A DNA stretch of 27,427 nucleotides from the NCBI GenBank assembly GCA_963792965.1, contig CAWBYW010000022.1:1-27427 (forward strand), given 5' to 3'. The notes below the pieces were generated by a model. The model did no database searches. It was not told the origin of the DNA and saw nothing but the letters and a program-made list of their open reading frames with translations. Below, piece by piece: positions 1 through 23,001 of the stretch (positions within the stretch are counted from its first letter, which is position 1; every line of letters begins with the position of its first letter). The stretch comes from an uncultured delta proteobacterium. Lineage in GTDB: Bacteria > Desulfobacterota > Zymogenia > Zymogenales > Zymogenaceae. The translations under genes were made by a program, and so were the position numbers.

Positions 1-578
1 GCGACCCGGCGCTCCTCACTGAGGCGGAAAGACCCAGGTCCGTGATCACAGACCCGAACCGGGCGGCGCACCCCTTCTCCGTGATGAACGAGTAGGAGAG
101 ACAGAACGTGCCAATCCCGGCGATATAGGCGTTGTGGCGCTCCAACCAGTTGCTGGTCGCCGGTAGCATGACGAACCGGTCGCTCCGGACGGGGGCGATG
201 GCCGCGTGCCCCGCGCGCGTGAGCTCCCCGACGACGTGATCCCTCACGGCGTTGTTGAACTCCTCGCCCCAGAAGCGCGAGGGTACCGCCTCCCTGGACG
301 GCATCCCGTCGGGCTTATTGCTGTCGGTTATCCCCTTTGAAAAGGGGAGAAAATAGTACGACGACGCTCTTTGCCCCGGCGAGCCACTCTGAAGGCAGGA
401 GGTGATGGGGGCCGATGATCCCTTCCTTCTTCAGATCCCGGTACATCGGATCATCGGCGGCCGTGAAGGCCACCAGCGGCTCCTCATAGATGGCGAGCCC
501 CGGGATCTCCGGGATGACGTTTCGCGCGTCGGTCGCCACAAAGCTCTCGATAATACCCCGTATCTCTTTTTCATCCAT
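1..578 (-). CDS. QueG (epoxyqueuosine reductase)-like Fe-S protein, copy B; frameshifted near 358; 3' end runs off the window
   Basis: ATG at 578 with a GGAGG RBS. MDEKEIRGIIESFVATDARN..YEEPLVAFTAADDP..GPHHLLPSEWLAGAKSVVV; after removing 1 base it reads YFLPFSKGITDSNKPDGMPS..SNWLERHNAYIAGIGTFCLSYSFITEKGCAARFGSVITD, collinear with the neighbouring copy at 724-1537. Confidence 0.75.
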
Positions 579-723
579 CGATGAGCCTCCTGTACGAAAT
601 TTCGTGTATCCGCCCCGAGAACGTCGCACTTCCGTCGCCTGTCTCTCGGAACAGCGTCTACCCCTTCCCCTCCGGCCCGCCTGAGCGGCCCACCGGCGGA
701 GTCCTATTATACCATGGTACGCC

Positions 724-1537
724 TTATTTCGTCTTCCTCGTCGGATTCGTTCGGGCGCACGGAACGGCGGTCTGGCACTTCCCGCAGCACAGGGAGCGTA
801 TGCCGCCGTATCTCTGTGGATATTCCGACACGACCCTCGTTACGAGAAAATCCTTGCACGCAAGATGATCCTTTTTCTCGGGCGCGATGGCCCCTACGGG
901 GCAGCGCGCAATGCAATCCCCGCAGCTTCCGTCGCCCTCAAAGAGGCAGTTTCCCTTCAAGGATGTCGCGGTGCGCGGCGTTGGATCGAGGGATAGGTCG
1001 GTGATCACGGAGCCGAATCTCCCCGCACACCCCCGCTCGGTGATGAACGAGTACGAGAGGGAAAACGTCCCCATGCCGGCGATATAAGCCGTGTGACGCT
1101 CCGACCAGTTACTTGTATCGGGCAGCATCACGAATCGCTCATCCCGCATCGGCGCGACGGCTGCGTGCCCCGCGCGCATGAGCACACCCGCGAGATGATC
1201 CCGCAGGGCGTTATTGAACGCCTCGCCCCAGTGGTAGGAAAGGTACCACTCCTTTGACGGCATGCCATCAGGTTTATTGCTGTCGGTGATCTCTCTCGTA
1301 AACGGCAGGAAGTATACGACGACGCTTCGTGCGCCCGGCAGCCATTCGTCGGGAGAGAGGTGGTGGGGGCCGATGATTCCCACCTCTTTCAACTGCCCGT
1401 AGATCGGGTCGCCCGCCGAGGCGATAGCGACGAGGGGCTCCTCGAAAGATGGTAAGGCCGGCGATCTCGGGGACGGCGTTTCGCGCGTCCGTCGCGACGA
1501 AATTTTTAATAAGGCCGGCTATCTCTTGTTCATCCAT
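724..1537 (-). CDS. QueG (epoxyqueuosine reductase)/reductive-dehalogenase-like 4Fe-4S dicluster protein, copy A; frameshift near 1446
   Basis: ORFs 1274-1546 and 724-1392 join by removing one T (ATC TTT CGA GGA becomes ATC TTC GAG GAG). Motifs SNWSERHTAYIAGMGTFSLS, GCAGRFGSVITD, C..CGDCIARCP and C..CCGKCQTAVPC. Confidence 0.8.
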
Positions 1538-1586
1538 GGCGGTCATCGGCTGTCTCGGTCATCGCGGTCGTTTCCGGCCCTTATAC

Positions 1587-2030
1587 CTATTCGCCCTTCT
1601 TGATGATCAGGTTTTCCAGGCCCATCTCCTTGAGGATCACGGGAAACATCCCGAAGGCCGGACGCACCACGGGCAGAAGCTTCATCATCGCCGTGATCTT
1701 TCCGCCCTGCTTCACCTTCCCCTTGGTCACCGCCGATATCGGGTTCTCGTGCCCGTGCCAGAAGCTGTGGGAGAAGTCGGCCGCCTGCTTTGACCAGACG
1801 TCTTCCTTGAGCTCGCACGGGCCGAGGTAGTAGTTACCGTGCATGCCGGGCTTTTTCGGCGGGTTCTTGAGGTCGATGGTAATCTCGGAATCAGGATCGG
1901 TGTAGATGAACCTGATAACGATGCCGGCCTTGCTCATCTTCGGCCCAATCTTCGGGTCGCTGAGGATCCGCTCCATGAAGTATCCGTAGATCTTATAGAG
2001 ATCATCGGCGTCTTTATAATACTTTCCCAT
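1587..2030 (-). CDS. SCP2 (sterol carrier protein-2) fold lipid-binding protein
   Basis: ATG at 2030 with an AAGGAGG RBS; 147 aa. Pattern IRFIYTDPDSEITID...AADFSHSFWHGHENPISAVTKGKVKQGGKITAMMKLLP is typical of stand-alone SCP2 domains. Confidence 0.75.
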   Translation of the reverse strand: MGKYYKDADDLYKIYGYFMERILSDPKIGPKMSKAGIVIRFIYTDPDSEITIDLKNPPKKPGMHGNYYLGPCELKEDVWSKQAADFSHSFWHGHENPISAVTKGKVKQGGKITAMMKLLPVVRPAFGMFPVILKEMGLENLIIKKGE

Positions 2031-2101
2031 AAGAGGCCTCCTTACACACGTCATACATTTTGAATAGCTGTCATTGCGAGCCGCTGTCTTTCTATCGGGG
2101 C

Positions 2102-2125
2102 CCCCACGAAGCGTGCTTCGTGGGG
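2102..2125. repeat. Perfect intergenic hairpin (REP-like or mRNA-stabilising element)
   Basis: CCCCACGAAG-CGTG-CTTCGTGGGG, a 10-bp stem just after the acyl-CoA dehydrogenase stop, with no U-tract in the direction of transcription. Confidence 0.5.
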
Positions 2126-2132
2126 TGATAGT

Positions 2133-3299
2133 TTACTTCCCTTTTCTCTGGTCAAATCTCCTGCCGAACAGCAGGCTCGCCATCGTGATCCTCAGCATCT
2201 GTACGGTGCCGCCTGCGACCCGCCAGGCCATCGCGTCGCGCGCCATTCTTTCCGCCGGGAACTCGGTGGAATAGCCGTAGCCGCCGAAGATCTGCATCGC
2301 GCTGGTCGTCACATCGACGACCATCTCGTTGGCGAAGCACTTGCCCATCGCGGCCTCATAGATCGACGGGAAGCCCCGCCCTGCCCCGCACGCCGCCCGA
2401 TAGACTAAGAGCCTGGCCGCGTCGAGCTTCATCGCCATGTCGACGATCTTGAACTGCACGTCCTGGAACTCCGCGATCGGTCGCCCGAAGGCATGGCGCT
2501 CCTGGGCGTACGCCTTGGCCGCCTCGATGGCCCCGCCCGCCGTGCCGAGGCACATGGCGGCGTTGCCGCAGCGCTCCACGTCGAACGTGGACATGAGGTT
2601 GGCAAACTCCCCCTCCTTGATGATCAGGTTCTCCTTGGGAATTTTTACGTCCTCGAAGATGAGGTCGCAGGACGGCATCCCGTGGAGCCCCATGAACTGC
2701 TCCTGCTTTCCGAAGCTGAACCCGGGGGAGCCGTTTTCGACCAGGAGCCCGCCGATCCCCTTGTAGCCGGAGATATCCCCGAGCCGGCAATAGACCATAT
2801 AGTGGCTCGCGTGGCCGCCGCCGGTGATGAAGGTCTTTCGGCCGTTGAGGATGTAGTGGTCGCCCTCGGCCACCGCCTTCGTGGTCAGAGACGTGAGGTC
2901 GGAGCCGGCCTCCGGCTCCGTCATGCAGACGGAGACAGACCCTTCACCCTTGCAGACCCGGGAGACGATCTCCTTCTTTTGCTTTTCGGATCCGTACTTG
3001 TCGATGACCCTGACCGGCCCGACGTTGCTTTCAAAGACCGGTGCGGCAATCATCGGAGAGAATTTCGCCAGCTCCTCCACGGCAAGGACGGCGTTGAGGA
3101 CGGGCTGACCGCCGCCGCCGTTCTCTTCCGAGAGGGTCATCCCCAAGAGCCCCATCTCGGCGTACTTCGGGATGAGGTGATACGGAAATTCGCCGGTTGC
3201 GTCGATCTTCTTGGCCAGCTCCTTGAAGTTCTCGCGCTCTCCCATGGTCCTGAGGGTATCGACGAGCATCTTCTGTTCGTCGGTGAGATTGAAATCCAT
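2133..3299 (-). CDS. Acyl-CoA dehydrogenase family protein
   Basis: 388 aa with MTEPEAGSD, LNGRKTFITGG, ERHAFGRPIAEFQ and QIFGGYGYSTEFPAERMARD. Confidence 0.95.
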   Translation of the reverse strand: MDFNLTDEQKMLVDTLRTMGERENFKELAKKIDATGEFPYHLIPKYAEMGLLGMTLSEENGGGGQPVLNAVLAVEELAKFSPMIAAPVFESNVGPVRVIDKYGSEKQKKEIVSRVCKGEGSVSVCMTEPEAGSDLTSLTTKAVAEGDHYILNGRKTFITGGGHASHYMVYCRLGDISGYKGIGGLLVENGSPGFSFGKQEQFMGLHGMPSCDLIFEDVKIPKENLIIKEGEFANLMSTFDVERCGNAAMCLGTAGGAIEAAKAYAQERHAFGRPIAEFQDVQFKIVDMAMKLDAARLLVYRAACGAGRGFPSIYEAAMGKCFANEMVVDVTTSAMQIFGGYGYSTEFPAERMARDAMAWRVAGGTVQMLRITMASLLFGRRFDQRKGK

Positions 3300-3318
3300 G
3301 ATTCGTCCTTTCTCTTTT

Positions 3319-4683
3319 TTAGATGAGTTTCGTTATCTCGGTCATGTCACTGACCGTTTCCAGCTTCAGGATTCGATCTATGAGAAGATCCACTTTCTTT
3401 TTATCGCGCGCGCCCGCGAATTGCCGCACCTTCTCTGCGACGTCCCGGGCCTCCATCGGATCGCGGGGGTCGCCCTTGGGGGTATCCACCTGTTTGGTGA
3501 GCTTTTGTCCGTCCTTGAGCGTGATCTGGACGCGGCTGGCGGTCTTGCCCGGGTAGAGCTTATTGAGCTCGTCGTCGTAGCTGATCGTCACTTTCTTCGT
3601 GAAGTCGATGAGGCTTTTGTCGGCAAGGCGTTTTTCCGTCAGCTGCGAGGGACCGAGCCGGCCGTCGGCAACGCATACCGACACGACGTACGGGATGGAA
3701 AATTGGGCGTTGACGAAGCTGTCGTTAAGCTTCACCTGTTTGCCGACGGCGATGACCGCGATCCCGTAGGTGAAGACCTCGACCTTTTCGACATCAGCGG
3801 GCTTGAATTTCTTTTCGGCAAGGAGGCCGAGCGTCGCCTGAGCCGAGCCGTGGGTGTGGCGGCAGGCAGTAAAGGGCTTGAAATAGATATCGAGGATCGT
3901 AAAATGCTCCCCGAGCTTGTCGGTTATCCGATCGAGGGCCGGGGGCTGGTCGGTCGTGATCTTACAGAATCCGCCGTTCAGCTGCGATCCCTCAAATACA
4001 TAGGGCATACCGGTGATGCCGCAAGCCGCGAGATACGCCGCCATGAGGCCGCTCTGGGCGGCCTTACCGCCCTGCACGACCTTGACGGTAAACCCGCCCA
4101 TGAGCTGTTCCGCCATGGAGAGAGGAAGCAGGTAGCCGGCATTGCCGAGGGCGCACAGCGTCTTCTCTTTGTCCAGGCCGATGAGCCGCGCGGCGGCGAT
4201 CGCCGCGCCGAACGTGCCGGTCGTGCCGGTGGGGAGAAAACCCGACAGGGTGTGCCGGGGATGGACCGCGGCGGCGGCGCGGTCTGCCGCCTCGTATCCC
4301 GCCGTGATCGCGGTGATGACGGCTTTGCCGTCCCTCTTGTTTTTCTCGGCAAGTCCCAGCGCCACCGGGATAACGGCCGTGCCGGGGTGGTTGCCGCCGA
4401 ACCGGAGGCCGTCCTGCGCCTCGATCGCCTCGGCGAGCACCCCGTTCATGAAGACGGCCTCGCTGATCGGCGCCGAAAAGCCGCAGCCGACGCACGTGAT
4501 GTCGCCCGGCCCGAGGGATTTGACCCAGTCGGCGACTTTCTTCACCGCGTCCAGCTCAAGCGACCCGTAGACGTTGGCGACGTAGTCCAGGACGCAGAGC
4601 TTGGCTTTCTCGACGACCTCGGCGGGAAGCCTGTCGTAGGTAAGGTCATGGCAGAAATCCGAAAGGAGCCTTGAGTATTCCAT
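3319..4683 (-). CDS. MmgE/PrpD family protein
   Basis: 454 aa with LPAEVVEKAKLCVLD, NGVLAEAIEAQDG..NHPG, AGYE, KPFTACRHTH, AQFSIPY and PKGDPRDP. Confidence 0.92.
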   Translation of the reverse strand: MEYSRLLSDFCHDLTYDRLPAEVVEKAKLCVLDYVANVYGSLELDAVKKVADWVKSLGPGDITCVGCGFSAPISEAVFMNGVLAEAIEAQDGLRFGGNHPGTAVIPVALGLAEKNKRDGKAVITAITAGYEAADRAAAAVHPRHTLSGFLPTGTTGTFGAAIAAARLIGLDKEKTLCALGNAGYLLPLSMAEQLMGGFTVKVVQGGKAAQSGLMAAYLAACGITGMPYVFEGSQLNGGFCKITTDQPPALDRITDKLGEHFTILDIYFKPFTACRHTHGSAQATLGLLAEKKFKPADVEKVEVFTYGIAVIAVGKQVKLNDSFVNAQFSIPYVVSVCVADGRLGPSQLTEKRLADKSLIDFTKKVTISYDDELNKLYPGKTASRVQITLKDGQKLTKQVDTPKGDPRDPMEARDVAEKVRQFAGARDKKKVDLLIDRILKLETVSDMTEITKLI

Positions 4684-4717
4684 GGGTTACTCCGCGATTA
4701 TATTAGTCAGGCTTTCT

Positions 4718-5518
4718 TTAAACATACCCCCTCTTCTCATAGATCTTGATCATCCGGTGCGGATCGAGAACCTCGCGCAACACCCTGATCTCCTCGGCAC
4801 GCGGGGGCTCGGTCTCGTGAATGTCCTTGGAGACCTTCAGGTCCCACGGGGTGTTGGCCTTTATTTCCTCAACCGTGCTGCCGGGATGATAGGAAAAGAG
4901 GTAGGCCACCTTGGTCTCTTCGTCAAAGCGCATGATCGCCTTGTTGGTGACGATCACGGAGGGGCCGGTGCCCTTTGGCAGTCCCCATTTCTCCCGCGCC
5001 CCCGGGCCGTCGATGTATCCGGGCGTCGTGATGAAGTCGACCTTTTCGGAGAGCCTGCGCTTGTCGTGCAGCGCGATGATGAGGACGTGCTTCACGAGCG
5101 CCCCGATCGGGTTTGCCCCGCCGCTGCCGGGCAGCCGGCTCTTTGGGGCATGGTAGTCGCCGATGACGGTGGTGTTGACGTTGCCGTATTTATCCACCTG
5201 GGAGCCGGCCAAAAATCCGACGTCGACCCACCCCTTCTGGAGAAACATCCCCATGATGTCGGTGAGGCCGCCGACGAAGGCCGCTCCCGGGTTGAGGCAC
5301 GGGTCGCCCACCGAAAGCGCCGGCCTCCGCGGTCGGGCATCGTAGACGCCGGACTCCTGCATCATCCTGGCCCCCGGCGCGTGGGTATGCTTGGCGATAT
5401 TGGCCGACATCGTTGGGAAACCGGTGCCGACGATGACCACGTCGCCGTCCTTTATCTCGCGCGCGCCGCAGCACGCCATCAGCTCGGGTTTGATATAATC
5501 GTCGGGATGGGTAGGCAT
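4718..5518 (-). CDS. Family I CoA-transferase beta subunit (glutaconate CoA-transferase GctB-like)
   Basis: AREIKDGDVVIVGTGFP, QESG (putative catalytic Glu), QVDKYGNVNTTVIGDY, RLPGSGGAN, VDFITTPG. Confidence 0.92.
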   Translation of the reverse strand: MPTHPDDYIKPELMACCGAREIKDGDVVIVGTGFPTMSANIAKHTHAPGARMMQESGVYDARPRRPALSVGDPCLNPGAAFVGGLTDIMGMFLQKGWVDVGFLAGSQVDKYGNVNTTVIGDYHAPKSRLPGSGGANPIGALVKHVLIIALHDKRRLSEKVDFITTPGYIDGPGAREKWGLPKGTGPSVIVTNKAIMRFDEETKVAYLFSYHPGSTVEEIKANTPWDLKVSKDIHETEPPRAEEIRVLREVLDPHRMIKIYEKRGYV

Positions 5519-5559
5519 TTGATGACTCCGAATAATAGAGGTACGTTATAAGAGGACAC

Positions 5560-5583
5560 GGGCGGCATATATGCCACCCCTAC
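5560..5583 (-). repeat. GTAG-family REP-like palindrome
   Basis: Minus strand reads GTAG-GGGTGGCAT-AT-ATGCCGCCC: a GTAG tetramer followed by an imperfect GC-rich palindrome, in the ~200-bp gap between the two CoA-transferase genes. Confidence 0.6.
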
Positions 5584-5723
5584 GGCTTTTAACCCATACG
5601 GCCGTGATACACCGCGCCCGTCTTTTGAACCTCTTCTCTTTATATACCCCGGTTCCGTATCAGTCTTTCGGGCCTCTATTGCACCGGGTTTGCTCCTGCG
5701 CGCCGCAGCGGTATCTTGGCTCA

Positions 5724-6659
5724 CTAATACTCGTAGCTGACAGGATAGCTGTAGCCGAACCGGGCCTGCAGGCGCCGAAACTGCGCCCATCCGAACTTCT
5801 TGATGTAGTGGTCGATATAGTCGGCCCGGTCCTTCGTGCCCAACACCCACTCGTCAACGAACTCCTTGAAGCCCTCCGGTGTGTCCGAGGCCTTCTGGTA
5901 GAGGGCCCCAAAGGCAAAATCGACGTCGTAGAAGCCCGGCGTATACCCCGGGTGCGACGCGAAGGGCTCCTCCACCACGGCGACCACCTTGAAGTCCGGC
6001 ACGATCGTCCGGGAAGGGTCAAGGCCGATCACCTCGCGGGAGACGATTCGCTCGGCGCTGACGATCACCTTTTTGCTCGCGTTTGCCCCCCATTTGCAGT
6101 CGCCGCCGATGCCCCAGATCTGGGCGTTCCCCTCTTCGTCGGCCTGCTGGACGTGGATGATCGCCACGTCGGGGACCAGCGCCGGCACCAGCAGCACCGG
6201 CGTCCCGTCAAAAGGGCTCTCGATCATCTTGTACTTGTTTTCCCCCATGAACGACTTGATGTTCAAGAGATCGGTGCCCACCATGTCCTTGACGGGGACA
6301 AAAGGCATCCCCATAGCGCCGGCCATGAGCATCATCGGCAGCGACAGGTTTGAGTATTCCTCCACCTCGATCTTGTGGGGGATCCCCTTCTCGATGGACC
6401 TGCGGTAGCAGCGCCCCAGCCCATAGATCCCGAGCGAGAGGAAAGTGGCGATGAATCGCTTGACACAGCCCGTCCCGATCAACATGTCAAAATCGTCGGC
6501 GGCGTTGCTCCGCGTGATCGTGAGGTCCTTCTTTCCCTGTCTGATGATCTCGTGCACGGCCGAGAAAGGGGTGCGGCAGATGTAGCCGCCGATAAAGAGA
6601 AAGTCGCCGTCCTTGACGTGCTGGGCGACGGCCTCCTTCATCGTGGTGAGCTTCGTCAT
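5724..6659 (-). CDS. Family I CoA-transferase alpha subunit (glutaconate CoA-transferase GctA-like)
   Basis: MKEAVAQHVKDGD, HEIIRQGKKDL, AGAMGMPFVP, PDVAIIHVQQADEEGNAQIWG, VIVSAERIV. Confidence 0.92.
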   Translation of the reverse strand: MTKLTTMKEAVAQHVKDGDFLFIGGYICRTPFSAVHEIIRQGKKDLTITRSNAADDFDMLIGTGCVKRFIATFLSLGIYGLGRCYRRSIEKGIPHKIEVEEYSNLSLPMMLMAGAMGMPFVPVKDMVGTDLLNIKSFMGENKYKMIESPFDGTPVLLVPALVPDVAIIHVQQADEEGNAQIWGIGGDCKWGANASKKVIVSAERIVSREVIGLDPSRTIVPDFKVVAVVEEPFASHPGYTPGFYDVDFAFGALYQKASDTPEGFKEFVDEWVLGTKDRADYIDHYIKKFGWAQFRRLQARFGYSYPVSYEY

Positions 6660-6725
6660 GGGTCAACCCGGTAAAAAATAGATCTGTCTTCTATTGTGCA
6701 GGCACACGTGAGGGTCGCCTGCACG

Positions 6726-9111
6726 CTAAATCTCGTACTCGGTGCGGCAGATGATCTCGTCCTGCGCAGTATCCGAAAGACCCGTGAAGAGGACGGAGTA
6801 GCCGCTGATTCTGACCACGAGGTCCTTGTATTTCTCCGGCTCCCTCTGGGCGGCGCGCAAGACGTCGGAATCGACCATGTTGAACTGGACCTGCATCCCC
6901 CCCTTGTCGAAGTAGGTCTTGATGAACGCGAGGAGGTTTTCCGGCCGGATCTTCTTGCCGGGGAACCGCAGGTTGAGGTTTGCGCCGTTGTGGAGGCGGA
7001 AAAGCGGAAGCTTGGTCACCGAGTTGATCACCGCGGTCGGGCCGGCTGTCGCGTTTCCGGTGGTCGGGGTCAGTCCGTTTCCCAGGATGTCGCCGGACGA
7101 CCGGCCGTCGGGTGTCGCGGCGGTGAAGGCGCCGATGGCGATGTGGAAGCCCACCGAGAAGATGCCCGGCCAGTAAGAGCCGCCCCGGTAGTTCTTATGT
7201 TTCGCAAGCTCGTCGCAGTAGTTGTCCACGACCCACCCGGCCATTTCGTCCACGTCGTCGATATCGTTTCCGTACTTGGGAACCCGAGTCAGGAAATAGG
7301 CGCGCTTGTCCTCGGCGTCCGTCCAATCGTCGGCAAGGTGCGCGGCAAGCTCGCCATGGTCATGACCTTCTCGTCGAAGACCGTCTTCTTGACGGCGTAG
7401 AGGCTGTCGGCGACATTGGCAAAGCCCATGAACTGTACGCCGGTGGAGTTATAGACCGCCCCGCCCTCGGTGGCGTCCATCCCTTTGTCGAGCAGCCGTC
7501 GATCATCGCCGAGGCAAAGGGCGACGGCGCAAGCTCGGCCACCGCCTGATCCATACAGGTCATGCCCCGCGCCATCTGCCCGATGAAGTGGGACAGCTGG
7601 GCGCTGTAGGCCTTCTTCACATCTTCGAATGTCGTGAATTTCTCGGGGTCGCCGGTCTCGGGGCCCGACTTGATAGCCGAAGGTGTTGTCGATGCCGTTT
7701 GACAGCGCAAGCTCCAGGCACTTGATCCCGTTGAACTGCACCGCGAAGGTGGAGCCGTAGGTCTTTCCCTGGGCGTTGGGCTCAAGACACCCGACCACCC
7801 CGTAGTTGCGGGCGTCGCTTATCGTGTGGCCGCCGGAAGTCAGGGCCTTGACGATCGCCTCATCGTTGAAGAAGTGCATCAGCACTCCCTCTTTGGCGTA
7901 CGTCACCGCCCGCATGAAGAAATCACGGGGGCTCTTTTCGCTGATCCTGACGCCGAAGTTGGGCTGGACCGTCCGAATGTCGGCATAGGCGTCGAGTCCG
8001 ATGTACTGACATCTCGGTGACGGCATCGTTTCCCTTCTCATCGATGCCGCCCACGACGACGTTCTGGGTGGTCTTGCCCTCCGTGCCCTCTCCGCCGGGG
8101 ATGAAGGCCTCCTCCAGCACGTTCCAGATCTCGCAGGTCTTGAGGAAGAGCAGCGAGAGGAGCTCCTTGGCCGCGTCATAGGTGATCGTGCCGGCCTTTT
8201 TGTCCGCCGCATAGTAGGGGTCGAGGATTTTGTCGATGCGCCCCAGCGAGATGGAGTTCCCCCCCGACTCGATCTGTGAGATCAGGTGGATGAAATAGAC
8301 GGACTGGACGGCCTCATGGTACGTGCGGGCGGGATGCTCCGGGACGTGGGAGCAGACCCGGGCGATATTGAGGAGCTCGGCCTTGCGTACGGCATCTTTT
8401 TCTTTTTCGGCCATCGTCTGGGCAACCCACGCGTAGCGGTTTGCAAAACGCACCGCCGCCTCAAGGCTTCTGATGACCGCCTCGTAGAAGAGGCCCTTCT
8501 TGCCCTGTCTTTATCCGACGCCGAGCAGCGCCGCAAGCTTGCCACGCGTTTCATCGATGATACCCCTGCAGCCCAACCCTGAGCACCCTGTCGTGATCCA
8601 TCGTGAAGTGCCCGACGCCGTAGGTGATCTCGAGCATCATCGTGAAGATATACTTATCCATGTCGTCGGACACGTCGGGGGGCAGAAGCTCCATCAACCT
8701 CTCCTCGACCGTCTTACCGTTCCAGAACGGGAGGATGTCCCGGGCGAGCTCTTCCTTCTCCGCCTCGGTGATGAGCGCCCGCTGGAGGACCCGCTCGTTG
8801 AAGCCTTCCAGGTCTCCCTCGATCCATTTGGACTTGTTTTCGGGGAAGAGCGGCGCCCCCTTCTTCTTCTCGGTCCTCGTGCCCACGATGAGCTCGCCCT
8901 CCCGGATGACGACGCTGATGCTGTCGAGGATATCCGACAGGGCCATGCTCATGCGCACGACGGCGGGCTTGTCCCAGTTTTGCTTCATCGACCGCGTGAG
9001 GAACCGTGCCCGCTCGATGCTCACTTCCTGGGGGGCGTCGATGATCGCTTCCCTCAATCTCCAGACACGCCTGCCGGCGTTTTTTTGTGCCTGCGCCTCT
9101 TGGGACAACAT
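6726..9111 (-). CDS. Glycyl radical enzyme (PFL2/glycerol dehydratase-like eliminase family), ~795 aa, interrupted by about 7 single-base indels
   Basis: ATG at 9111 with a GAGGAGG RBS. Collinear fragments: SIERARFLT..IREGELIVG; YGVGHF; PARTYHEAVQS..QIESGGNSISLGRID; QNVVVGG; VVGCLEP (Cys codon 7787-7789); NVADSLYAVKK; PKYGND; ATPDGR; QVQFN; LVVRISGYS (Gly codon 6801-6803). Frame changes near 8563, 8525, 8503, 8010, 7670, 7492 and 7353. Confidence 0.92.
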
Positions 9112-9174
9112 GGTCGTCCTCCTCTCTAAAAGCCTTCTCACTCGTCGGATAAATGCCGACAATACTTATATACT

Positions 9175-9203
9175 ATTATCCCACCTACAGAAACGGTTTT
9201 CAA
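9175..9203 (-). promoter_or_regulatory. Putative internal sigma70 promoter upstream of the GRE
   Basis: Minus strand TTGAAA (9203-9198), 17-nt spacer, GATAAT (9180-9175), in an AT-rich gap 63 bp before the GRE ATG. Confidence 0.55.
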
Positions 9204-9208
9204 GCGAT

Positions 9209-10039
9209 TTATACCCGTATCTTCATGTAGCTCTCGAGGATGAAATCCTTGACCCGCATCGGCAGGAAGCGGTTAAGCTTCAAAAGGAAGGCGTCCGCAA
9301 AGAGGATCTGGTTGAAGAACTTCGGATGCTCCTTTTCGACGATTTTCACGATCGTCTTGGCGGCCGCTTCAGGTGTCGGCGCGCTCTTGATGAGCTCATT
9401 GTCCCGATCGATGAAGCGCTTGACCCGGTCGCGGTAGGGTGATCCGTCGGGCGGCAGCTTGTGGATCTTGGCGGCAAAGGTCGTTGCCACCTGGGCGGGC
9501 TCGATGATCGCCACCCTGATCCCGAAGGGCTTTACCTCATACTTGAGCGACTCGACAAAACCGGAGATGGCAAACTTGGATGCGGTGTAAATGGACTCGA
9601 AGGGAAAGGGAACGCGGCCCACGAGCGACGACATGGCGATCAGTCTTCCCTTCTTCACCTTACGCATCGACGGGATGAAAGCCTGAAAGATTGCCATAGC
9701 GCCGATGACATTGATCTCGAGGCACTTGAGGGCCTTTTCGAGGTCGATCTCCTCAAACGGGCCGAAGAAGCCGATGCCCACGTTGGAAAGCACGATGTCG
9801 ACTGTGCCGTATTTTTTTAGGACATCGTCGCGGAATTTGAGTATACCTTTTCGGTCGGTAATGTCCATCGCGGTGAGGTGGTGATCACCACCGATTGTGG
9901 AGAGCTCTTTCTTGAGCGACTCGATGCCCGCCTTATTGACGTCGAAGCCCGCGATCGCGTAGCCTTTCTTGGCGAGGATCAGGGCAACTTCCCGGCCCAT
10001 CCCTTCGCCGAGGCCGGTAATGACGATGGTCTTTTTCAT
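9209..10039 (-). CDS. Classical short-chain dehydrogenase/reductase (SDR)
   Basis: TGLGEGMG (TGxxxGxG), acidic residue after beta2 (GFD, suggests NAD), SNVG, catalytic S and YTASK, IEPAQVAT. Confidence 0.92.
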   Translation of the reverse strand: MKKTIVITGLGEGMGREVALILAKKGYAIAGFDVNKAGIESLKKELSTIGGDHHLTAMDITDRKGILKFRDDVLKKYGTVDIVLSNVGIGFFGPFEEIDLEKALKCLEINVIGAMAIFQAFIPSMRKVKKGRLIAMSSLVGRVPFPFESIYTASKFAISGFVESLKYEVKPFGIRVAIIEPAQVATTFAAKIHKLPPDGSPYRDRVKRFIDRDNELIKSAPTPEAAAKTIVKIVEKEHPKFFNQILFADAFLLKLNRFLPMRVKDFILESYMKIRV

Positions 10040-10153
10040 AATGACTCCGTATGAAATGTTACTGATGAGAAAACTCTCTTATATCCGGATCGGTGACGGC
10101 ACAACACCCGATTCACCGACGCACAGCGGGTCCTTACATAGCCGGGGAGATCG

Positions 10154-11149
10154 TCATCGTATCTCCAGTTTCCCCTCCCGATAGAGTCTCCCGATCTCTT
10201 CCATCGATTTTGTGAAGTCGGGGTAAAGAAGGGTGAAGCCGGTTTTCTTGAGCTTCGCGTTATCCACCACATAATCGTCGTAGAGGTAGCGAACCGCGTC
10301 GTACTCGAGGTCAGGGATCTTCCCCCTCGATGCCGAGACCCATCCGTCAAGGCGGGCGGCAATCTTGACGAGCCACAGCGGGAGATGAAGCGAAGGCCGC
10401 TTACCGGTAAACGCGAGCGCCGCGAGGGTCAGCGCCTCCCCCACGGTGGGGTTTGAATCGTCGGCGATATTATAGGCCTCCCCACTGATCCCGTCGATCG
10501 TCGACAGGTGCGCTACCGCCCGGGCCACGTCCTCGGCCCTGATATTGGCAAGGAGCCGTTTTCCGTCGCCCGGGATCGCGGCGATCGAGGTCGGCCGGGA
10601 GAAGGCCTTTCCCGCTCCGTCGGTGCATCGCGGTCCGTAGACCGTACAGGGCCGCAACAATACGGCGTTGAGGCCCTTTTCGATCGCCTTTTTGAGCATG
10701 TCTTCCCCGTCCCGCTTGCTCCTCCCGTAGTTGTCCTGGGGTTCCCTCGGCGAGTCCTCGCGAAAGGGGGTGCCCCGATAGGGACCATAGACGCTCGTCG
10801 AGGTCACATGGACGAAGCGTTTAACCCCGGCCTTGAGCGCCTCGTCGGTGATCAGCTTTACGCCAAGGACGTTTGTGGGATAGAGTTTTTCGTAGGGCGT
10901 TGAGAAGTTACAGATTGCCCCCAGGTGAATAACCCGGTCGACCCCGCCGGAAAAGAGGGGTGGTACGGTCTCGGGCCTGGTCAGATCGGCGGCCTGGTAC
11001 TGGACTCCGAGGCGATCGAAAAATGACGTGTCCTTTCGGGGTCGGGCGGTGGCCCGGACGGTGACACCCGACTTCGCCAGGTGCTCGACCACGTGGCTCC
11101 CCATGAATCCCGCGGCCCCCGTTACGAGTGTTATCCCTGAAAACTTCAT
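10154..11149 (-). CDS. Extended SDR, NAD(P)-dependent epimerase/dehydratase or 3-beta-HSD-like
   Basis: TGAAGFMG, HLGA, TNVLG, TSTSVYG, YGRSK, LRPCTVYGP. Confidence 0.9.
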   Translation of the reverse strand: MKFSGITLVTGAAGFMGSHVVEHLAKSGVTVRATARPRKDTSFFDRLGVQYQAADLTRPETVPPLFSGGVDRVIHLGAICNFSTPYEKLYPTNVLGVKLITDEALKAGVKRFVHVTSTSVYGPYRGTPFREDSPREPQDNYGRSKRDGEDMLKKAIEKGLNAVLLRPCTVYGPRCTDGAGKAFSRPTSIAAIPGDGKRLLANIRAEDVARAVAHLSTIDGISGEAYNIADDSNPTVGEALTLAALAFTGKRPSLHLPLWLVKIAARLDGWVSASRGKIPDLEYDAVRYLYDDYVVDNAKLKKTGFTLLYPDFTKSMEEIGRLYREGKLEIR

Positions 11150-11195
11150 GGTTTACTCCCTCCTGAGATTCTATCGAGCGGGCGCTCGGCCCGTT

Positions 11196-11744
11196 TCAGA
11201 CGACCGTTTTCTTTCTTACCGCCGGGACTTCCGCCTCTATCTCCTGTTTCGCCTTGACAAGCCATTCGAGCATCCCCTCGTTGAGCGATATCCCAAGCTC
11301 TCTCATGAGCCGCGCGTAGACGGTTTCATTTTGGTTCACCTCGTAGCGCTCCTGCCTCTTCCTGAGCACCTGTCGATAGCTGTCGATCTGGGCTTCGATG
11401 ATCTCGAGCGCCTTCTCTTTATCGCCGAACGAGAAAAATATGAACTTCAGCAGGAAGGGGTCACGGATGAGCATATCACGCTCGGGTGCGGACTGGAGCC
11501 ACTCGGAAAAGGCTTCCCTCCCCTTGTCGGTGATGGAATAGAGCTTTCTGTCGGGCGCGTTCTTTTGGGCCACGTCTCTCTTCGTGACGAGTCCATCCTG
11601 TTCGAGCCTTTTTAGGGTCGGATAGATCTGGCCGAAGTTGATGGACCACATGAACCCGAAGTCATTTTCGATGATCTCCTTGAGGCGGTAGCCGTGCATG
11701 TCTTTATAGTGAAGCAGCCCCAGAATGGCGTATTTGACGGACAT
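11196..11744 (-). CDS. PadR/AphA family transcriptional regulator
   Basis: KYAILGLL..MHGYRLK..GQIYPTLKRLE..PDRKLYSITDKGR..EWL, plus a C-terminal RDPFLLK helical domain. Confidence 0.95.
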   Translation of the reverse strand: MSVKYAILGLLHYKDMHGYRLKEIIENDFGFMWSINFGQIYPTLKRLEQDGLVTKRDVAQKNAPDRKLYSITDKGREAFSEWLQSAPERDMLIRDPFLLKFIFFSFGDKEKALEIIEAQIDSYRQVLRKRQERYEVNQNETVYARLMRELGISLNEGMLEWLVKAKQEIEAEVPAVRKKTVV

Positions 11745-11856
11745 CGATAATTCCTCTCAGAGAATGTTTGTGGTGGCTCCGGCAGGTCTAAGCGTACGAA
11801 AACACTCGAAAAAGTGCGACGTGTTCTCACGACAGGAGCGCTTAGCCCTGTCGAAG

Positions 11857-11888
11857 TATATCGGAAGTATATATATCGAAATTATATA
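11857..11888. promoter_or_regulatory. Tandem palindromic operator, probably bound by PadR
   Basis: TATAT-CGGAAGT-ATATA (11857-11873) and TATAT-CGAAATT-ATATA (11872-11888) overlap the -10 box and the spacer of the promoter. Confidence 0.6.
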
Positions 11889-11894
11889 AGTCAA
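11866..11894 (-). promoter_or_regulatory. sigma70 promoter of the padR-GRE cluster
   Basis: Minus strand TTGACT (11894-11889), 17-nt spacer, TATACT (11871-11866); both hexamers are 5/6 matches to consensus. Confidence 0.75.
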
Positions 11895-12126
11895 GAAATT
11901 TTTGGCAAGAGGCATATGAAATCTATGGCGATGGCGGCGCCTGCCCGCGAGAACCAATGCGGTTTTCTCTTCCTCTTTCAGGGCCGTGCCCACGCCGCCG
12001 CAAGCCCCGGCAGGAAAAGCCACGTCGTGGATAGATTTATGTTGTAACGGCCGGACTTATCTGTTATAGATTATGCCGTCATCACGAGAAGCTGTGAAGC
12101 GTAGACTTTTTTCAGGGAGATTTCCA

Positions 12127-12744
12127 ATGCCACTGAAAGAAAAGATACCCAATCAGATGCTCCACATGGTCCTGTTAACCCTCGATGAGGTCATGGGAAC
12201 AAACGCGGTTAAGTCGATCCTCAACTTCGCGCATCTCCAAAAATTTATAGACAATTACCCGCCGAGTGATTTCAACGATGAGCATTACGTCCTGGACTTT
12301 ACCCGACTGATTGGAGGAATCATCGATCTCGTCGGTGAGCGCGGCGCGCGGGCTATCATGTTCCGCGGGGGCGTGAGGGGATTTGAAATCACGCTTGAGC
12401 AGTTCCCGTCGCTCGTGAATATTGAAGGCATTAAACCCGAGGAAAGAACCGACGAGAGGATGTTTGACGAGTTTCAGCGGATTTATGGGATTATAGTCCA
12501 GTCGGGGGTTTCCATCTTCGGAGACGTCTACAAGTATTACCCGTGCGAAGAAGGGGTTGCGCTGGAGATCTCGCCCTGCTACTTCTGCGTCGGTCTCAAG
12601 GCGCAGGACCCGATATGCAACGCTCAGCTCGGCTACCAGTTCGGAATCGGGCGCTGGATTCTCGGCAAAGAAATCAAGGTCGAGGAAACCCACTGTATTG
12701 CGAAGGGCGACCCGATGTGCCGATTCGTCATGCACCGGCCCTGA
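12127..12744 (+). CDS. Stand-alone V4R (4-vinyl reductase-like) domain protein
   Basis: ATG at 12127 after GGGAGA. SPCYFC..PICNAQLG..VEETHCIAKGDPMCRF is the V4R signature. Confidence 0.85.
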   Translation: MPLKEKIPNQMLHMVLLTLDEVMGTNAVKSILNFAHLQKFIDNYPPSDFNDEHYVLDFTRLIGGIIDLVGERGARAIMFRGGVRGFEITLEQFPSLVNIEGIKPEERTDERMFDEFQRIYGIIVQSGVSIFGDVYKYYPCEEGVALEISPCYFCVGLKAQDPICNAQLGYQFGIGRWILGKEIKVEETHCIAKGDPMCRFVMHRP

Positions 12745-13102: not shown

Positions 13103-13303
13103 ATGGGAATAATATTAGTGATACTCCTGGCCCTGATCGGCTGGGTCATTTATCGCTATCTGTCTCAGGGCAGGCTTGAGATCCTGAGATCCGAGATTCC
13201 CGGATCGAAGGAAACCCCCGAGGACATCCTGGACAGGAGACTCGCCGAGGGGAAGATCAACCAAGAGGAATACGGACACATCCGACGGACCCTCCACTCG
13301 TGA
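13103..13303 (+). CDS. Small membrane protein with SHOCT domain
   Basis: N-terminal TM helix, then PEDILDRRLAEGKINQEEY. Confidence 0.8.
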   Translation: MGIILVILLALIGWVIYRYLSQGRLEILRSEIPGSKETPEDILDRRLAEGKINQEEYGHIRRTLHS

Positions 13304-13350
13304 AATTGAGAGCGGAGGGCCGGTCGGCTCGCTGGTGATGGAGGAAGACG

Positions 13351-13659
13351 ATGTTTGAGACACTGATGCAATCGGCAACCTATTTCCTGCCGGCGCTGCG
13401 CTGGTGGGGGGGTGGCTACTACGGCGGCCCGGGATACGGCATGATGGGGTGGTATTCACCCTTCTGGATGATCCTCCACGGGCTGTTCTGGATTGTCGTG
13501 CTCGTCGTGATTATCTGGGCGATCGTGCGACTGACGAGAAGCAAGACAATGGCCCATACCGGGACGCCATTGGATATTCTCAAGCGGAGGCTCGCGTCGG
13601 GCGAGATATCTGCTGAGGAGTTTGCGAAGATCAAGAAGACCCTCGACGATAAGAAGTAA
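13351..13659 (+). CDS. Membrane protein with SHOCT domain and a Gly/Met-rich N-terminus
   Basis: GGAGG RBS; GPGYGMMGW, a TM helix, then PLDILKRRLASGEISAEEFAKIK. Confidence 0.85.
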   Translation: MFETLMQSATYFLPALRWWGGGYYGGPGYGMMGWYSPFWMILHGLFWIVVLVVIIWAIVRLTRSKTMAHTGTPLDILKRRLASGEISAEEFAKIKKTLDDKK

Positions 13660-13797
13660 CCGAGGGAATCTTTTTGGATTTTCACACATCCTGACGTGAA
13701 AGAAAGGATAACGCTGGATAATATACCCAGATCAGCCCTTTGACGGCAGTTGATTCTTGCTCAAGAATAACCATGAAACAAGAGAGAGGTGATAACC

Positions 13798-14467: not shown

Positions 14468-14950
14468 ATGCCAGGACGAAGATCGCGTCCACCATTGTTG
14501 CCCGTTGTTTTTTTGTGTATCGTCGCCCTCCTTGTTTCGCTGGTCCTTGCGCAATCGTGCGGGGCGCAGCACTATTCATCCAACGGAGAAAGAATCTATA
14601 CTACCGGCATTAACGACCAGGGCCAGCGTATTCCTTTCTACGGGGGCCCCATGTGGCTTTCCGCGCACGGCGGCAGCTGCGTGAACTGCCACGGTCCCGA
14701 GGGCCGCGGCGGCACGCCGGTCATGATGCTTCAGGTAATTCCCGCCGATATCCGTTACGATTCGCTGATCTCCGGGAAATATGACCCGAGCGGAGAGGCG
14801 GGGACCCCGTATACGGATGAACTGATCGTCCGGGCGATCCGAGAGGGGATCGACCCTGACGGTAAGCCTCTTTACCAGGGGATGCCGCGCTGGCAGATGA
14901 CCGATAAAGACGTCCATGACGTCATCGACTACTTGAAGCAGCTCAAGTAG
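14468..14950 (+). CDS. Monoheme c-type cytochrome, probable lipoprotein
   Basis: Hydrophobic signal with LAQSC; CVNCH; distal Met in GMPRW. GAGGAGG RBS at 14451-14457. An alternative start at 14464 would require an indel near 14500. Confidence 0.88.
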   Translation: MPGRRSRPPLLPVVFLCIVALLVSLVLAQSCGAQHYSSNGERIYTTGINDQGQRIPFYGGPMWLSAHGGSCVNCHGPEGRGGTPVMMLQVIPADIRYDSLISGKYDPSGEAGTPYTDELIVRAIREGIDPDGKPLYQGMPRWQMTDKDVHDVIDYLKQLK

Positions 14951-15026
14951 CGGGGAACACCGACCCGCGCGCGCGGGGGCGACACGCCCCCGCCATTTCC
15001 GCGAGCCGGGGATATGAGGCAGACTC

Positions 15027-15161
15027 ATGGGCGATGATCTGTTTCGGGCGGTCGCCGTCGTCGTCATTCTCTACGCCGTCTATCACGTCGCAACGCTCGT
15101 CCGAAACGTCATCCGCGAGTCCCGCAAACGGAGAAAGAACAAGCCGCCCCGTGATGCGTAG
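15027..15161 (+). CDS. 44-aa single-pass membrane protein (below the length cutoff of the ORF track)
   Basis: GAGG shortly before the ATG; MGDDLFRAVAVVVILYAVYHVATLVRNVIRESRKRRKNKPPRDA; third codon positions are mostly G/C as in neighbouring genes. Confidence 0.55.
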   Translation: MGDDLFRAVAVVVILYAVYHVATLVRNVIRESRKRRKNKPPRDA

Positions 15162-15491
15162 ACCGAGCACGCCGAGCATCGGCGTCGAGATGCGGCGACG
15201 GGTGCGGCGGTAGCGACGGGGGAACGCTCGCCCGGCCTCCGTGCGCGCTTGGCGTGACCTCATCGTCTCTCGTCCAGGGAGGAGACCGGGTCCGTCAATT
15301 CCCTTCTCTGTGCCGGCTCCACCCGTCCCGGTCGAATCGCGACAGCCGATTTCTATCCCACGGCCTTTACACGGCCGTTTTTTTGTGATACGGTTTCAAG
15401 GACTATCACGCAACGGCGCCTCAGAGCTGGCTCATCGGCGCCGTCTTCAGACAATACTCAACCACTCACATACTCGCGGAGGTAAAGCAAA

Positions 15492-16607: not shown

Positions 16608-16824
16608 CCCGGTGCGGAAGAGAAGAAGCAGTGCCCTCGATGATACGGGGCCGCCACCGGGTGGCCCGCTTCTTATGCGCCCTCCGGCCTCTCTCGCGCT
16701 CCAAGCACCGTGCGCCGCGTGAGCGGGCATCAGCGGGTTCTTACTTCTTGTCTCTTTTGACTTTTTTTCTACCCGATTTATGGTATCATTTATAGGTGCA
16801 TATCCATTGACAGGAGGAGTTGAC

Positions 16825-17829: not shown

Positions 17830-17915
17830 GGCCTCTTACAGGCCGTTGTCCCGACGCGTGGGAGCGTTTCTTGAGAAATCGCGGGTTCTGTGCCCGTCCA
17901 ACAACGGAGGTTGCG

Positions 17916-19487: not shown

Positions 19488-19536
19488 GAGTCGGCTTCCC
19501 CGCCCGGCCGCGGAAGGCCGATGGACTCCGAAACAG

Positions 19537-19569
19537 AAACGGATACCTCACGAGGGTGTCCGTTTTTTT
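19537..19569 (+). terminator. Intrinsic terminator
   Basis: AAACGGATACC...GGTGTCCGTTT stem followed by a T-run. Confidence 0.7.
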
Positions 19570-19710
19570 CTCTATCGGTTTTCCCCCTTTCATCTTGATT
19601 TTTTTTACCGATCGGATATCATGGACGGGCGCCTGTCGGCAAAGATACCGCGGCCCGTGCGCCTCGGGTGAGTCTTTCATGCTTCCTCTATCCCTTGGCA
19701 GGAGACCTGC

Positions 19711-20400: not shown

Positions 20401-20481
20401 GCGGATGCGAAAGCCGCGCCGGCGGCGGGTTTGAGAATGCTCGTACTCGGTTGGATCTCTGGAACAGTGCGGAGGGACACA

Positions 20482-22000: not shown

Positions 22001-22135
22001 GCGGGTGCATTCGGTCCCGTCTTGCGCGCGTGGGTCGGCAAGCCTCGTTTGTCGGTACCCTCCGCCGGTCCGGGCTGAGACGGTCGCGGCGCATTTCTCT
22101 CTAAAATGGGCAAGGGGTTTCCGTGGCGCGATCGA

Positions 22136-22679: not shown

Positions 22680-23001
22680 GGCTACTCCTCCCTCTTCACC
22701 TTTCCGAAGGCCTATCATCGAAGCCGGCTCAGGTGGCATCCTCCCCGATTCAGTACCAACGATGTGGATTCATTATATCAGACGATGCGGCTACCGACAA
22801 CCTCTTCGGGGTCACTATTGCCCTCACGCGTCGCCGCTTTTTCTTGCCGACCGCGGCCCCGCCGGCTTGTCGTCCGTCCCGCCCGCCCCCGGCCTTCCCT
22901 TACCGTTCTTAAAGCCAACGCGCCCATACGCGGTTATAAAATAGGCGTTGAAGAGAACGCTGCTCTGTGATATGAATAGATAGTTTAACCACGGAGCGTC
23001 G

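Follow-up and report, generated by a model that had tools for sequence, protein, structure and literature searches.

Contig CAWBYW010000022.1 of an uncultured delta proteobacterium (family Zymogenaceae; GenBank assembly GCA_963792965.1) carries at its start a set of genes built around a glycyl radical enzyme (GRE). The window analyzed here is the whole of this contig (C22; 27,427 bases), one of 42 in a metagenome-assembled genome (MAG) of 3.36 Mb that is 88.85% complete. From a gene for a PadR-family regulator to one for a small SCP2-like protein, this block is a conserved cassette, whereas the two QueG-like genes that follow are a lineage-specific add-on. We favor, with moderate confidence and from sequence comparison, reading the block as a PadR-autoregulated, mobile catabolic cassette of strict anaerobes. 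In this reading, the GRE would act as a new eliminase of diols or beta-hydroxy ethers, the SCP2-like protein would present an amphipathic substrate to it, the aldehyde product would be oxidized, and the acid would pass to a CoA-transferase, an MmgE/PrpD protein and an acyl-CoA dehydrogenase (ACAD).

Conservation of the cassette is evident both within the family and beyond it. Nine of nine same-family genomes carry a GRE ortholog (67-80% DNA identity), and all eight that were compared in detail have every gene from PadR to SCP2 in the same order; one genome of another family has only the two short-chain dehydrogenase/reductase (SDR) genes, the GRE gene and the SCP2-like gene. In each of those genomes, the GRE ortholog is a single open frame of 793-825 amino acids. 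A wider scan, which took one genome per species, yielded 57 loci, comprising 53 with an ortholog-level GRE and four outgroups (27-30% identical). Upstream of the GRE gene, 3.2 kb or more of flanking DNA is available at 35 ortholog loci, and among these the classical SDR and the extended SDR are each found at 32 and PadR at 30. Downstream, where 32 loci have at least 8 kb, CoA-transferase subunits A and B and PrpD are each found at 27, the ACAD at 28 and the SCP2-like gene at 30. A short variant lacking the transferase/PrpD/ACAD block occurs at six loci, and none of the neighbors is present at two Binatia-labeled loci and one locus with a 52%-identical enzyme. The near-unchanged recurrence of these genes in uncultured anaerobes of several phyla suggests that they probably encode an unknown breakdown pathway. 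An association of this kind had been named by the original prediction, made from the letters of the window alone, as the feature on which its proposed pathway depended. The same prediction had counted the QueG-like genes as pathway members; these are present at only five of the 32 downstream loci, all of the Zymogenaceae lineage, and lie outside the conserved cassette.

The labels of the carriers include Candidatus Zymogenaceae, Desulfomonilia, Spirochaetota/Leptospirales, Smithella/Syntrophales, Bacteriovoracaceae, Desulfobacterales/Desulfonema, Syntrophomonadaceae, Fibrobacteres and Binatia. The GRE orthologs group together as a single clade (support 100), joined by a very long branch, in a quick maximum-likelihood tree of 50 rows. 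Within this clade, at least five label changes are needed for Spirochaetota and at least two for Syntrophales, and four Syntrophomonadaceae rows adjoin a Leptospiraceae row, so that either the cassette has moved between lineages or bins are mixed. The clade is also large: at the 90% identity level, at least 120 protein clusters are at least 66% identical to the GRE, all with generic names. Of the four outgroup loci (L070-L073), two are from Bacteroidales MAGs, one is from an Actinomycetota MAG and one from a Mycobacterium isolate, and an activase gene lies directly beside each of their GRE genes.

Gene layout and a candidate operator

From position 11744 to the contig start, 11 minus-strand genes follow one another head to tail. 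They comprise, in order, PadR, extended SDR, classical SDR, GRE, CoA-transferase A and B, MmgE/PrpD, ACAD, SCP2-like protein and two QueG-like proteins. The gaps calculated from the coordinates, from PadR onward, are 46, 114, 97, 66, 205, 34, 19, 102, 43 and about 100 bp. The features of the cassette and its putative control sites are as follows.

11908-11881, minus strand: promoter-like site, TTGCCA-16-TATAAT (11 of 12 consensus matches)
11894-11866, minus strand: promoter-like site, TTGACT-17-TATACT, overlapping the TTGCCA-16-TATAAT site (10 of 12 consensus matches)
11196-11744, minus strand: PadR-family regulator with a Vir_act_alpha_C C-terminal domain (PF03551, 74.9 bits against a cut-off of 27; PF10400, 37.4 bits)
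10154-11149, minus strand: extended SDR of the NAD-dependent epimerase/dehydratase family (PF01370, E 8e-35; GxxGxxG and YxxxK in the translation)
9209-10039, minus strand: classical short-chain dehydrogenase (PF00106, E 7.6e-47)
9175-9203, minus strand: possible internal promoter between the classical SDR and GRE genes, close to the GRE start, TTGAAA-17-GATAAT plus a TG upstream (extended -10), from a consensus match only
6726-9111, minus strand: GRE of the eliminase type, with five single-base insertions or deletions (PFL-like and Gly_radical domains in five frame pieces)
5724-6659, minus strand: CoA-transferase subunit A, glutaconate CoA-transferase type (PF01144, E 1.9e-32; GctA 1poi, E 1e-52)
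4718-5518, minus strand: CoA-transferase subunit B, QESG motif with Glu55 (PF01144, E 5.3e-32)
3319-4683, minus strand: MmgE/PrpD protein (PF03972, E 1.4e-52; PF19305, E 1.9e-37)
2133-3299, minus strand: ACAD (three ACAD Pfam domains)
1587-2030, minus strand: SCP2-like small protein of 146-147 amino acids, 146 here (fold-level evidence)
about 727-1543, minus strand: QueG-like Fe-S protein, copy 1, whose reading frame shifts near 1442-1470 (TIGR00276, E 5.7e-11)
2 to about 620, minus strand: QueG-like Fe-S protein, copy 2, whose reading frame shifts near 342-379, cut by the contig end (ortholog alignment)

This arrangement agrees with the original prediction of 11 co-oriented minus-strand genes with short gaps (19-205 bp), downstream of a near-consensus promoter (TTGCCA-16-TATAAT, 11 of 12). 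A promoter scan returned three sites, compared with 0.8 in shuffled sequence. No minus-strand terminator-like site was found within the intergenic gaps, and such sites overall are not above expectation (15 versus 10.6 +/- 3.5 in shuffles).

Both promoter-like sites sit within an AT-rich TATATA repeat, and the region 11866-11908 is a probable PadR operator. The PadR winged-helix domain itself is assigned well above threshold (74.9 bits against 27). A pattern of TTGAC..TATAWA lies within 300 nt upstream of padR at 22 of 29 loci, compared with 31 of 3676 control windows. Moreover, long AT-only palindromes of the ACTATATA..TATATAGT type, placed 50-150 nt upstream of padR (for example, at loci L063, L028, L056 and L062), overlap the promoter or TTGACA box in many loci under different phylum labels. 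Taken together, the pattern and the palindromes suggest that regulator, promoter and likely operator travel with the genes; the AT palindrome is a candidate conserved operator of the cassette, at which PadR would bind.

Divergent from padR lies a V4R-domain gene (12073-12744, plus strand; PF02830, E 8.5e-10). This gene stands beside the cassette at only one of 57 loci and is therefore probably not part of the system. The remainder of the contig (14468-27426) encodes a cytochrome c, glyceraldehyde-3-phosphate dehydrogenase (16780-17829), an F5/8-type-C/DUF2330 protein, a hemerythrin and a SpoIIE-like phosphatase. Also present are an MscS channel, a rubrerythrin, a zinc-ribbon protein and an ATC-hydrolase-like fragment, and two long open reading frames (ORFs) have no Pfam match (15447-16931 and 19393-21648).

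The glycyl radical enzyme and its predicted chemistry

The central enzyme belongs to the GRE superfamily: PF02901 and PF01228 match its frame pieces, VRISGYS stands in the translation, and the radical glycine is kept in 46 of 46 orthologs. Its closest solved structure is the B12-independent glycerol dehydratase 1r8w (E 3.3e-169, 568 bits); other near relatives are 9rco, described as a 'glycyl radical protein', and propanediol dehydratase 5i2a (E 2.3e-149). Scores to benzylsuccinate synthase (BSS) and MasD are 261 and 245.6 bits, respectively. None of the NCBIfam models is passed. All eight GRE equivalogs remain far under their cut-offs, among them HpfG (566.7 against 1000), PRK09983 (523 against 1109), HypD (513.5 against 1100), HpsG (469.7 against 1000) and CutC (460 against 1050), and the PFL2/glycerol-dehydratase subfamily model TIGR01774 is missed by 2 bits (676.1 against 678.2). 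These scores below cut-off and the well-supported clade of its own set the enzyme apart from the characterized ones, with which close clustering would have spoken against the original prediction.

The catalytic residues that the enzyme retains are consistent with radical 1,2-elimination. The thiyl cysteine C440, along with E442, H168 and G769, is invariant in all 46 full-length orthologs. The cysteine loop reads GCLEP and so holds the Cys-X-Glu eliminase motif in every ortholog, and the histidine of GVGH, equally invariant, aligns with His164 of glycerol dehydratase; Ser282 of the latter is retained in the alignment as well. The substrate pocket differs from that of glycerol dehydratase at five positions, and mostly towards non-polar residues: H281N, Y339T, D447F, Y640F and Q636W. 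In the ortholog columns, N284, T347, F454 and F650 are found in 46 of 46 and W646 in 45 of 46. The replaced residues His281, Tyr339, Asp447, Tyr640 and Gln636 are presumably those that contact glycerol in the structure published in 2004.

Radical eliminases are covered by a June 2026 review, whose accessible text states that all C-O eliminases retain the Cys-X-Glu motif and that whole GRE clades are still without any experimental function (PMC13450708). The mechanism it describes is hydrogen abstraction beside a hydroxyl, followed by loss of the neighboring leaving group to give an aldehyde. In glycerol dehydratase, Glu435 takes the proton from the C1 hydroxyl and His164 protonates the leaving C2 hydroxyl, with Cys433 in the same loop as the glutamate (PMC13450708). 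The eliminases listed in that text are the glycerol, propanediol and 2,3-dihydroxypropane-1-sulfonate (DHPS) dehydratases, three hydroxyproline enzymes, CutC, IslA/IseG and HpsG, and their substrates (glycerol, propanediol, hydroxyprolines, choline, isethionate and DHPS) are all small and polar (PMC13450708). Radical elimination at either a C-O or a C-N bond had been predicted for the present enzyme; the Cys-X-Glu loop and the retained histidine are consistent with the first, and nothing specific was found in favor of the second.

The best hint as to the product comes from the genes that accompany the cassette elsewhere. Flanking ORFs were clustered, and one representative of each cluster was scanned with Pfam. 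Among the 35 loci with an SCP2-like ORF, 17 have a gene for a tungsten-type aldehyde:ferredoxin oxidoreductase (AOR) directly after it; an aldehyde dehydrogenase occurs in five loci and a DUF362 protein in four. The recurrence of the first two suggests that the GRE product is an aldehyde. In Zymogenaceae, the QueG-like genes occupy the slot that the aldehyde oxidoreductase holds in other lineages. The same clustering found no conserved small-subunit gene besides the SCP2-like one, and no BMC-domain gene was matched anywhere in the genome (88.85% complete); the predicted lack of small GRE subunits and of microcompartment genes is thereby borne out.

GREs require a radical-SAM activase, and none is encoded within the window; a domain scan of 14468-27426 found neither an activase nor an electron-transfer flavoprotein. 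The genome has one clear activase gene (TIGR02494, 328 bits; contig C6, 52850-53713), which lies beside another GRE gene. A TIGR02494 gene is present in nine of ten family genomes and, in the two compared for distance, lies approximately 33-45 kb from the cassette. We infer that an activase from another part of the genome serves the cassette enzyme in trans. There are five GRE loci in the genome in all: the one in the window, C13:18270-20195, C9:175770-177605, C6:54173-55645 and C13:158886-160857, the last of which is split over two frames.

Partner proteins and the proposed pathway

The small protein at the end of the cassette is unusually well conserved: identity across phyla is 65-93%, and an alignment of 26 sequences from several phyla has 66 invariant columns. 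This suggests a role more specific than bulk lipid carriage. Its sequence has no Pfam match even at E<=1, that of the SCP2 model PF02036 included, and its PDB sequence matches, to the putative SCP2 protein AF_1534, are weak (E 0.35-0.41). An AlphaFold2 model is of low confidence (pLDDT 63, pTM 0.62), and SCP2, UbiJ-SCP2 or putative SCP2 proteins make up almost all of its leading Foldseek matches (best E 3.5e-3, TM 0.52/0.64). Additionally, PF02036 is found in 20-40% of the members of the nearest ESM Atlas clusters. An SCP2-like fold is therefore probable for the 146-amino-acid protein, to the extent that a predicted model allows, and the label given by the original prediction rests on fold-level evidence and not on a Pfam match. 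A predicted complex of the GRE with this protein scored 0.28 against a mark of 0.32 and counts neither way.

Between the GRE and the SCP2-like protein lies the block that would act on CoA esters and their acids. The transferase is of the two-subunit glutaconate type (family I), with PF01144 on both subunits and a match to 1poi (E 1e-52). Subunit B bears a QESG motif in which E55 is found in 33 of 33 sequences; the glutamate of the E-S/N-G motif in this subunit is, we assume, the catalytic residue. Both the N- and C-terminal domains of MmgE/PrpD are present (178.8 and 129.2 bits, cut-off 32.1), which supports the predicted family assignment. The prpD equivalogs are failed (TIGR02330, 27.7 against 458; NF006943, 35.4 against 575), and the closest solved structures are IDS-epimerase and IRG1/CAD (E ~1e-27 to 1e-23). 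Family members share six conserved carboxylate-binding or catalytic residues, namely three His, one Glu and two Lys, according to the accessible text of a 2025 paper (PMC12290011). In alignments to IDS-epimerase and CAD, four of these appear to be kept here by motif position (E88, H99, K201 and K269), on a mapping of the numbering that is our own inference.

The ACAD has its best solved relative in 4l1f (E 4e-86). It reads AGGT, in 31 of 31 orthologs, where four solved ACADs have YEGT, and has a Glu242 within FD(V/I)ERCG in 32 of 32 sequences. We take the YEGT glutamate to be the catalytic base of short- and medium-chain ACADs, and isovaleryl- and long-chain ACADs presumably carry the base at the place of Glu242. 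An invariant glutamate at that place suggests that ACAD activity may be retained, and it would be in keeping with a branched or bulky acyl group.

The extended SDR also matches the fatty-acyl-reductase type PF07993 and the 3-beta-hydroxysteroid dehydrogenase family PF01073; its best NCBIfam model is HpnA (103.7 bits, cut-off 367), and a search of solved structures returned only a 'putative oxidoreductase'. The best NCBIfam models of the classical SDR, both under cut-off, are PRK06179 (184 against 310) and 3-ketodihydrosphingosine reductase (169 against 400). Its search of solved structures returned nothing at E<=1e-28, a threshold that was too strict. QueG-like copy 1 scores 42 bits against a cut-off of 200 for the QueG equivalog TIGR00276, and an intact 288-amino-acid ortholog is remote from epoxyqueuosine reductase 5d08 (E 3.3e-7). 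By sequence, this protein is a distant relative of QueG and not QueG itself.

Together, these features suggest a pathway with a core of four proteins (the two SDRs, the GRE and the SCP2-like protein) and an optional block between GRE and SCP2 (Gct-type A and B, MmgE/PrpD and ACAD). The GRE, activated in trans, would act as a new 1,2-eliminase, that is, a C-O dehydratase or lyase, on the vicinal diol or beta-hydroxy ether of an amphipathic or hydrophobic molecule that the SCP2-like protein holds or delivers. The resulting aldehyde would be converted to the acid by the AOR or aldehyde dehydrogenase found with the cassette in other lineages. The acid would then be activated by the CoA-transferase and oxidized by the ACAD, and the PrpD-like protein may isomerize or (de)hydrate the free acid, as in the methylsuccinate trio described below. 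The pocket changes and the SCP2-like fold make the predicted hydrophobic substrate plausible.

A bolder form of this reading, which we hold to be possible but doubtful, is that the cassette represents the first GRE system for a lipid-like substrate; long-chain 1,2-diols, glycerol monoethers, alcohol ethoxylates and the side chains of polyol lipids are candidates. It would be fed by a dedicated SCP2-type chaperone, and its aldehyde would be oxidized and enter a new CoA-dependent branch made up of the Gct-type transferase and atypical PrpD-family and ACAD enzymes, all within a mobile, PadR-switched cassette shared among uncultured anaerobes of sediments and digesters. For sphingoid-base deamination, dehydration of a hopanepolyol side chain, itatartarate or paraconate lactones, sulfosuccinate, cleavage of polyethylene glycol or ethoxylates, and quorum-signal lactones, there are weak family resemblances at most.

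Frame breaks and alternative explanations

In the window, the GRE gene, whose breakage the original prediction did not weigh, is not one open frame: an intact ortholog of 793 amino acids aligns to it in five frame pieces. DNA alignment with five intact 793-amino-acid orthologs places an extra base at each of 8569, 8007 and 7671 and a missing base near 7493 and 7356, along with an in-frame gain of three bases at 8516-8518. In QueG-like copy 2, ortholog residues 1-93 are in one frame and 81-206 in another. These breaks are probably consensus or assembly errors rather than signs of gene decay, and the main ground is that near-identical contigs lack the indel at four of the five GRE sites. The comparison drew on the two public DNA data sets found to hold this sequence, with shares of 0.09 and 0.06. 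In contigs from one other study (X1), there is an extra base at 7355 and 7491 and one base fewer at 8007 than in the window; in those from a second (X2), there is an extra base at 7491 and one base fewer at 8569. The ortholog-like state is thus seen at four sites, while site 7671 and the region 8884-9200 were not covered. For some of these contigs, identity to the window is 98-99%, and the X2 pieces differ from it by one to three letters per approximately 150 nt.

Real pseudogenization is the most serious rival, and we judge it unlikely though far from negligible. Under this explanation, the oxygen-sensitive parts (the GRE and both QueG-like proteins) would be decaying here while the other genes stay intact, and the locus would be a relic in this strain. 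The density of lesions speaks for it: five frame-breaking indels in the 2.4 kb of the GRE gene and one in each QueG-like gene, compared with none in the approximately 6.4 kb of the other eight cassette genes. Moreover, the GRE indels fall outside long homopolymers, and rpoB and rpoC are intact. Set against this, besides the contigs from other samples, is that the frame pieces are as identical to orthologs as the intact neighbor genes are. A single-base frame change also breaks an unrelated hypothetical gene outside the cassette, one that relatives share (13118-13662, minus strand, at 13309). Furthermore, two relatives assembled in few contigs from long reads (G005, locus L011; G007, locus L009) have frame breaks or split hits in other cassette genes, namely PrpD, ACAD, extended SDR and PadR, indicating that such breaks are common among this set of assemblies. 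The nearest relatives, at about 80% DNA identity, are too distant for recent relaxation to be seen.

A second explanation makes the cassette part of a hydrocarbon-activating or substituted-succinate pathway: the GRE would make or handle an alkyl- or arylsuccinate, the transferase, a PrpD epimerase and the ACAD would process the product, and the SCP2-like protein would bind the hydrocarbon tail. The two SDRs and the ACAD are reminiscent of the bbs operon, and Smithella and Syntrophales are among the host labels. The characterized trio of transferase, PrpD isomerase and ACAD acts on 2-substituted succinates, and the known PrpD-family substrates in the accessible text all share a succinate backbone (PMC12290011). 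The enzyme itself points elsewhere, with 568 bits to glycerol dehydratase compared with 261 to BSS and 245.6 to MasD and with the eliminase Cys-X-Glu motif kept. In addition, the SCP2-like gene is the only conserved small gene among the clustered flanking ORFs, and the short variant at six loci does without the trio. This explanation is therefore improbable.

The GRE might instead be an ordinary glycerol or 1,2-propanediol dehydratase surrounded by unrelated housekeeping genes, for which its best solved relatives, the Cys-X-Glu motif and the equivalent of His164 would all be expected. The accessible text of the Zymogenia preprint also notes genes for fucose-to-lactaldehyde conversion without a propanediol dehydratase. 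It is very unlikely that this is so, given that five polar or aromatic-hydroxyl pocket positions are replaced (four in 46 of 46 orthologs, one in 45), that the subfamily and equivalog models are not passed, that microcompartment genes are absent and that the same neighbors recur in the same order across phylum labels. Least likely of all is a role in biosynthesis or lipid remodeling, such as deoxygenation of a membrane polyol lipid: an SCP2-like carrier, an extended SDR nearest to the hopanoid-associated HpnA (under cut-off) and the lack of a substrate transporter at most loci would fit it, but PadR control, the AOR and aldehyde dehydrogenase, the CoA-transferase with ACAD and a patchy, horizontally mixed distribution are typical of accessory catabolic islands.

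Several points also weigh against the catabolic cassette as proposed. The SCP2-like protein lacks a Pfam match and its model reaches a pLDDT of 63, while an MFS transporter and an arylesterase/SGL-type lactonase, each in seven loci, would be no less compatible with a small soluble substrate than with a lipid. Likewise, the characterized MmgE/PrpD substrates in the accessible text are all polar C4-dicarboxylates (PMC12290011). In the cassette protein, two of the family histidine positions read Glu85 (28 of 29 sequences) and Leu150 (27 of 29); as a result, the predicted (de)hydration step is a guess, and the methylsuccinate analogy may not hold. An activase is adjacent at one of 53 ortholog loci versus four of four outgroup loci. 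The carriers are all MAGs, and their taxon labels therefore depend on binning. With respect to the frame breaks, the indel check used contigs from two other studies, and the intact rpoB and rpoC speak against general error across the assembly. Of the eight frame changes seen in the window, seven are in the GRE and QueG-like genes, which fits recent real decay as well.

Significance and comparison with known systems

The prediction that this pathway is undescribed is supported: no description of such a cassette was found in literature searches or in the accessible text of the June 2026 review (PMC13450708), supplementary files lying outside the search. The term 'glycyl' occurs zero times in the text of the Zymogenia preprint, whose Table S3 lay outside the search. 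The GRE clade is large and confined to uncultured anaerobes, and its conserved neighbors are unusually informative. A hydrophobic substrate, if confirmed, would mean a new type of anaerobic C-O bond cleavage and an oxygen-independent dehydratase for bulky diols, and it would be relevant to what becomes of ether lipids, diols or surfactants in sediments, peat and digesters. Even without a substrate, the intact orthologs of 793 amino acids, the 146-amino-acid partner and the conserved palindromic operator are targets for experiment.

Among known systems, glycerol dehydratase (1r8w) and propanediol dehydratase (5i2a) resemble the cassette GRE over its full length, with the glycyl motif, the Cys-X-Glu motif and the His164 equivalent in common, and the same chemistry would be expected of it. 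Unlike them, the cassette enzyme has five pocket replacements, lacks an adjacent activase and a microcompartment, and lies in an entirely different neighborhood. The X-succinate synthases (BSS and alkylsuccinate synthases, with bbs-type genes) likewise place a GRE beside a CoA-transferase, an ACAD and SDRs, and their hosts include syntrophic lineages of the Deltaproteobacteria type. The cassette GRE is distant from these enzymes (261 and 245.6 bits, against 568 to glycerol dehydratase) and keeps the eliminase glutamate, and the cassette has no small subunits, adjacent activase, hydratase or thiolase genes.

For the 146-amino-acid protein, the best fit of the low-confidence predicted fold is to SCP2 and UbiJ-SCP2 structures, and lipid-binding accessory proteins of the SCP2 and UbiJ-UbiT type are of similar size. 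UbiJ and UbiT are small carriers that present a hydrophobic substrate to soluble enzymes. The cassette protein differs from this group in its lack of a Pfam SCP2 match and in its unusually high sequence conservation.

The closest characterized parallel to the transferase/PrpD/ACAD block is, by analogy, the methylsuccinate trio. In the itaconate cluster of pseudomonads and Cupriavidus, as described in the accessible text, an itaconate CoA-transferase, an (S)-(R)-methylsuccinate isomerase and a methylsuccinyl-CoA dehydrogenase belong to the same three families and stand side by side as in the cassette (PMC12290011). There, the breakdown of methylsuccinate is shared by a CoA-transferase, a PrpD-family isomerase that works on the free acid and an ACAD, and the isomerase gene always adjoins the ACAD gene (PMC12290011). 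In the cassette, by comparison with that cluster, the transferase is of the GctAB type, PrpD has Glu and Leu in place of two histidines, and the ACAD glutamate lies elsewhere. Moreover, the hosts of the cassette are strict anaerobes, and in them the trio is embedded in a GRE cassette, an arrangement that sets it apart from the cluster described.

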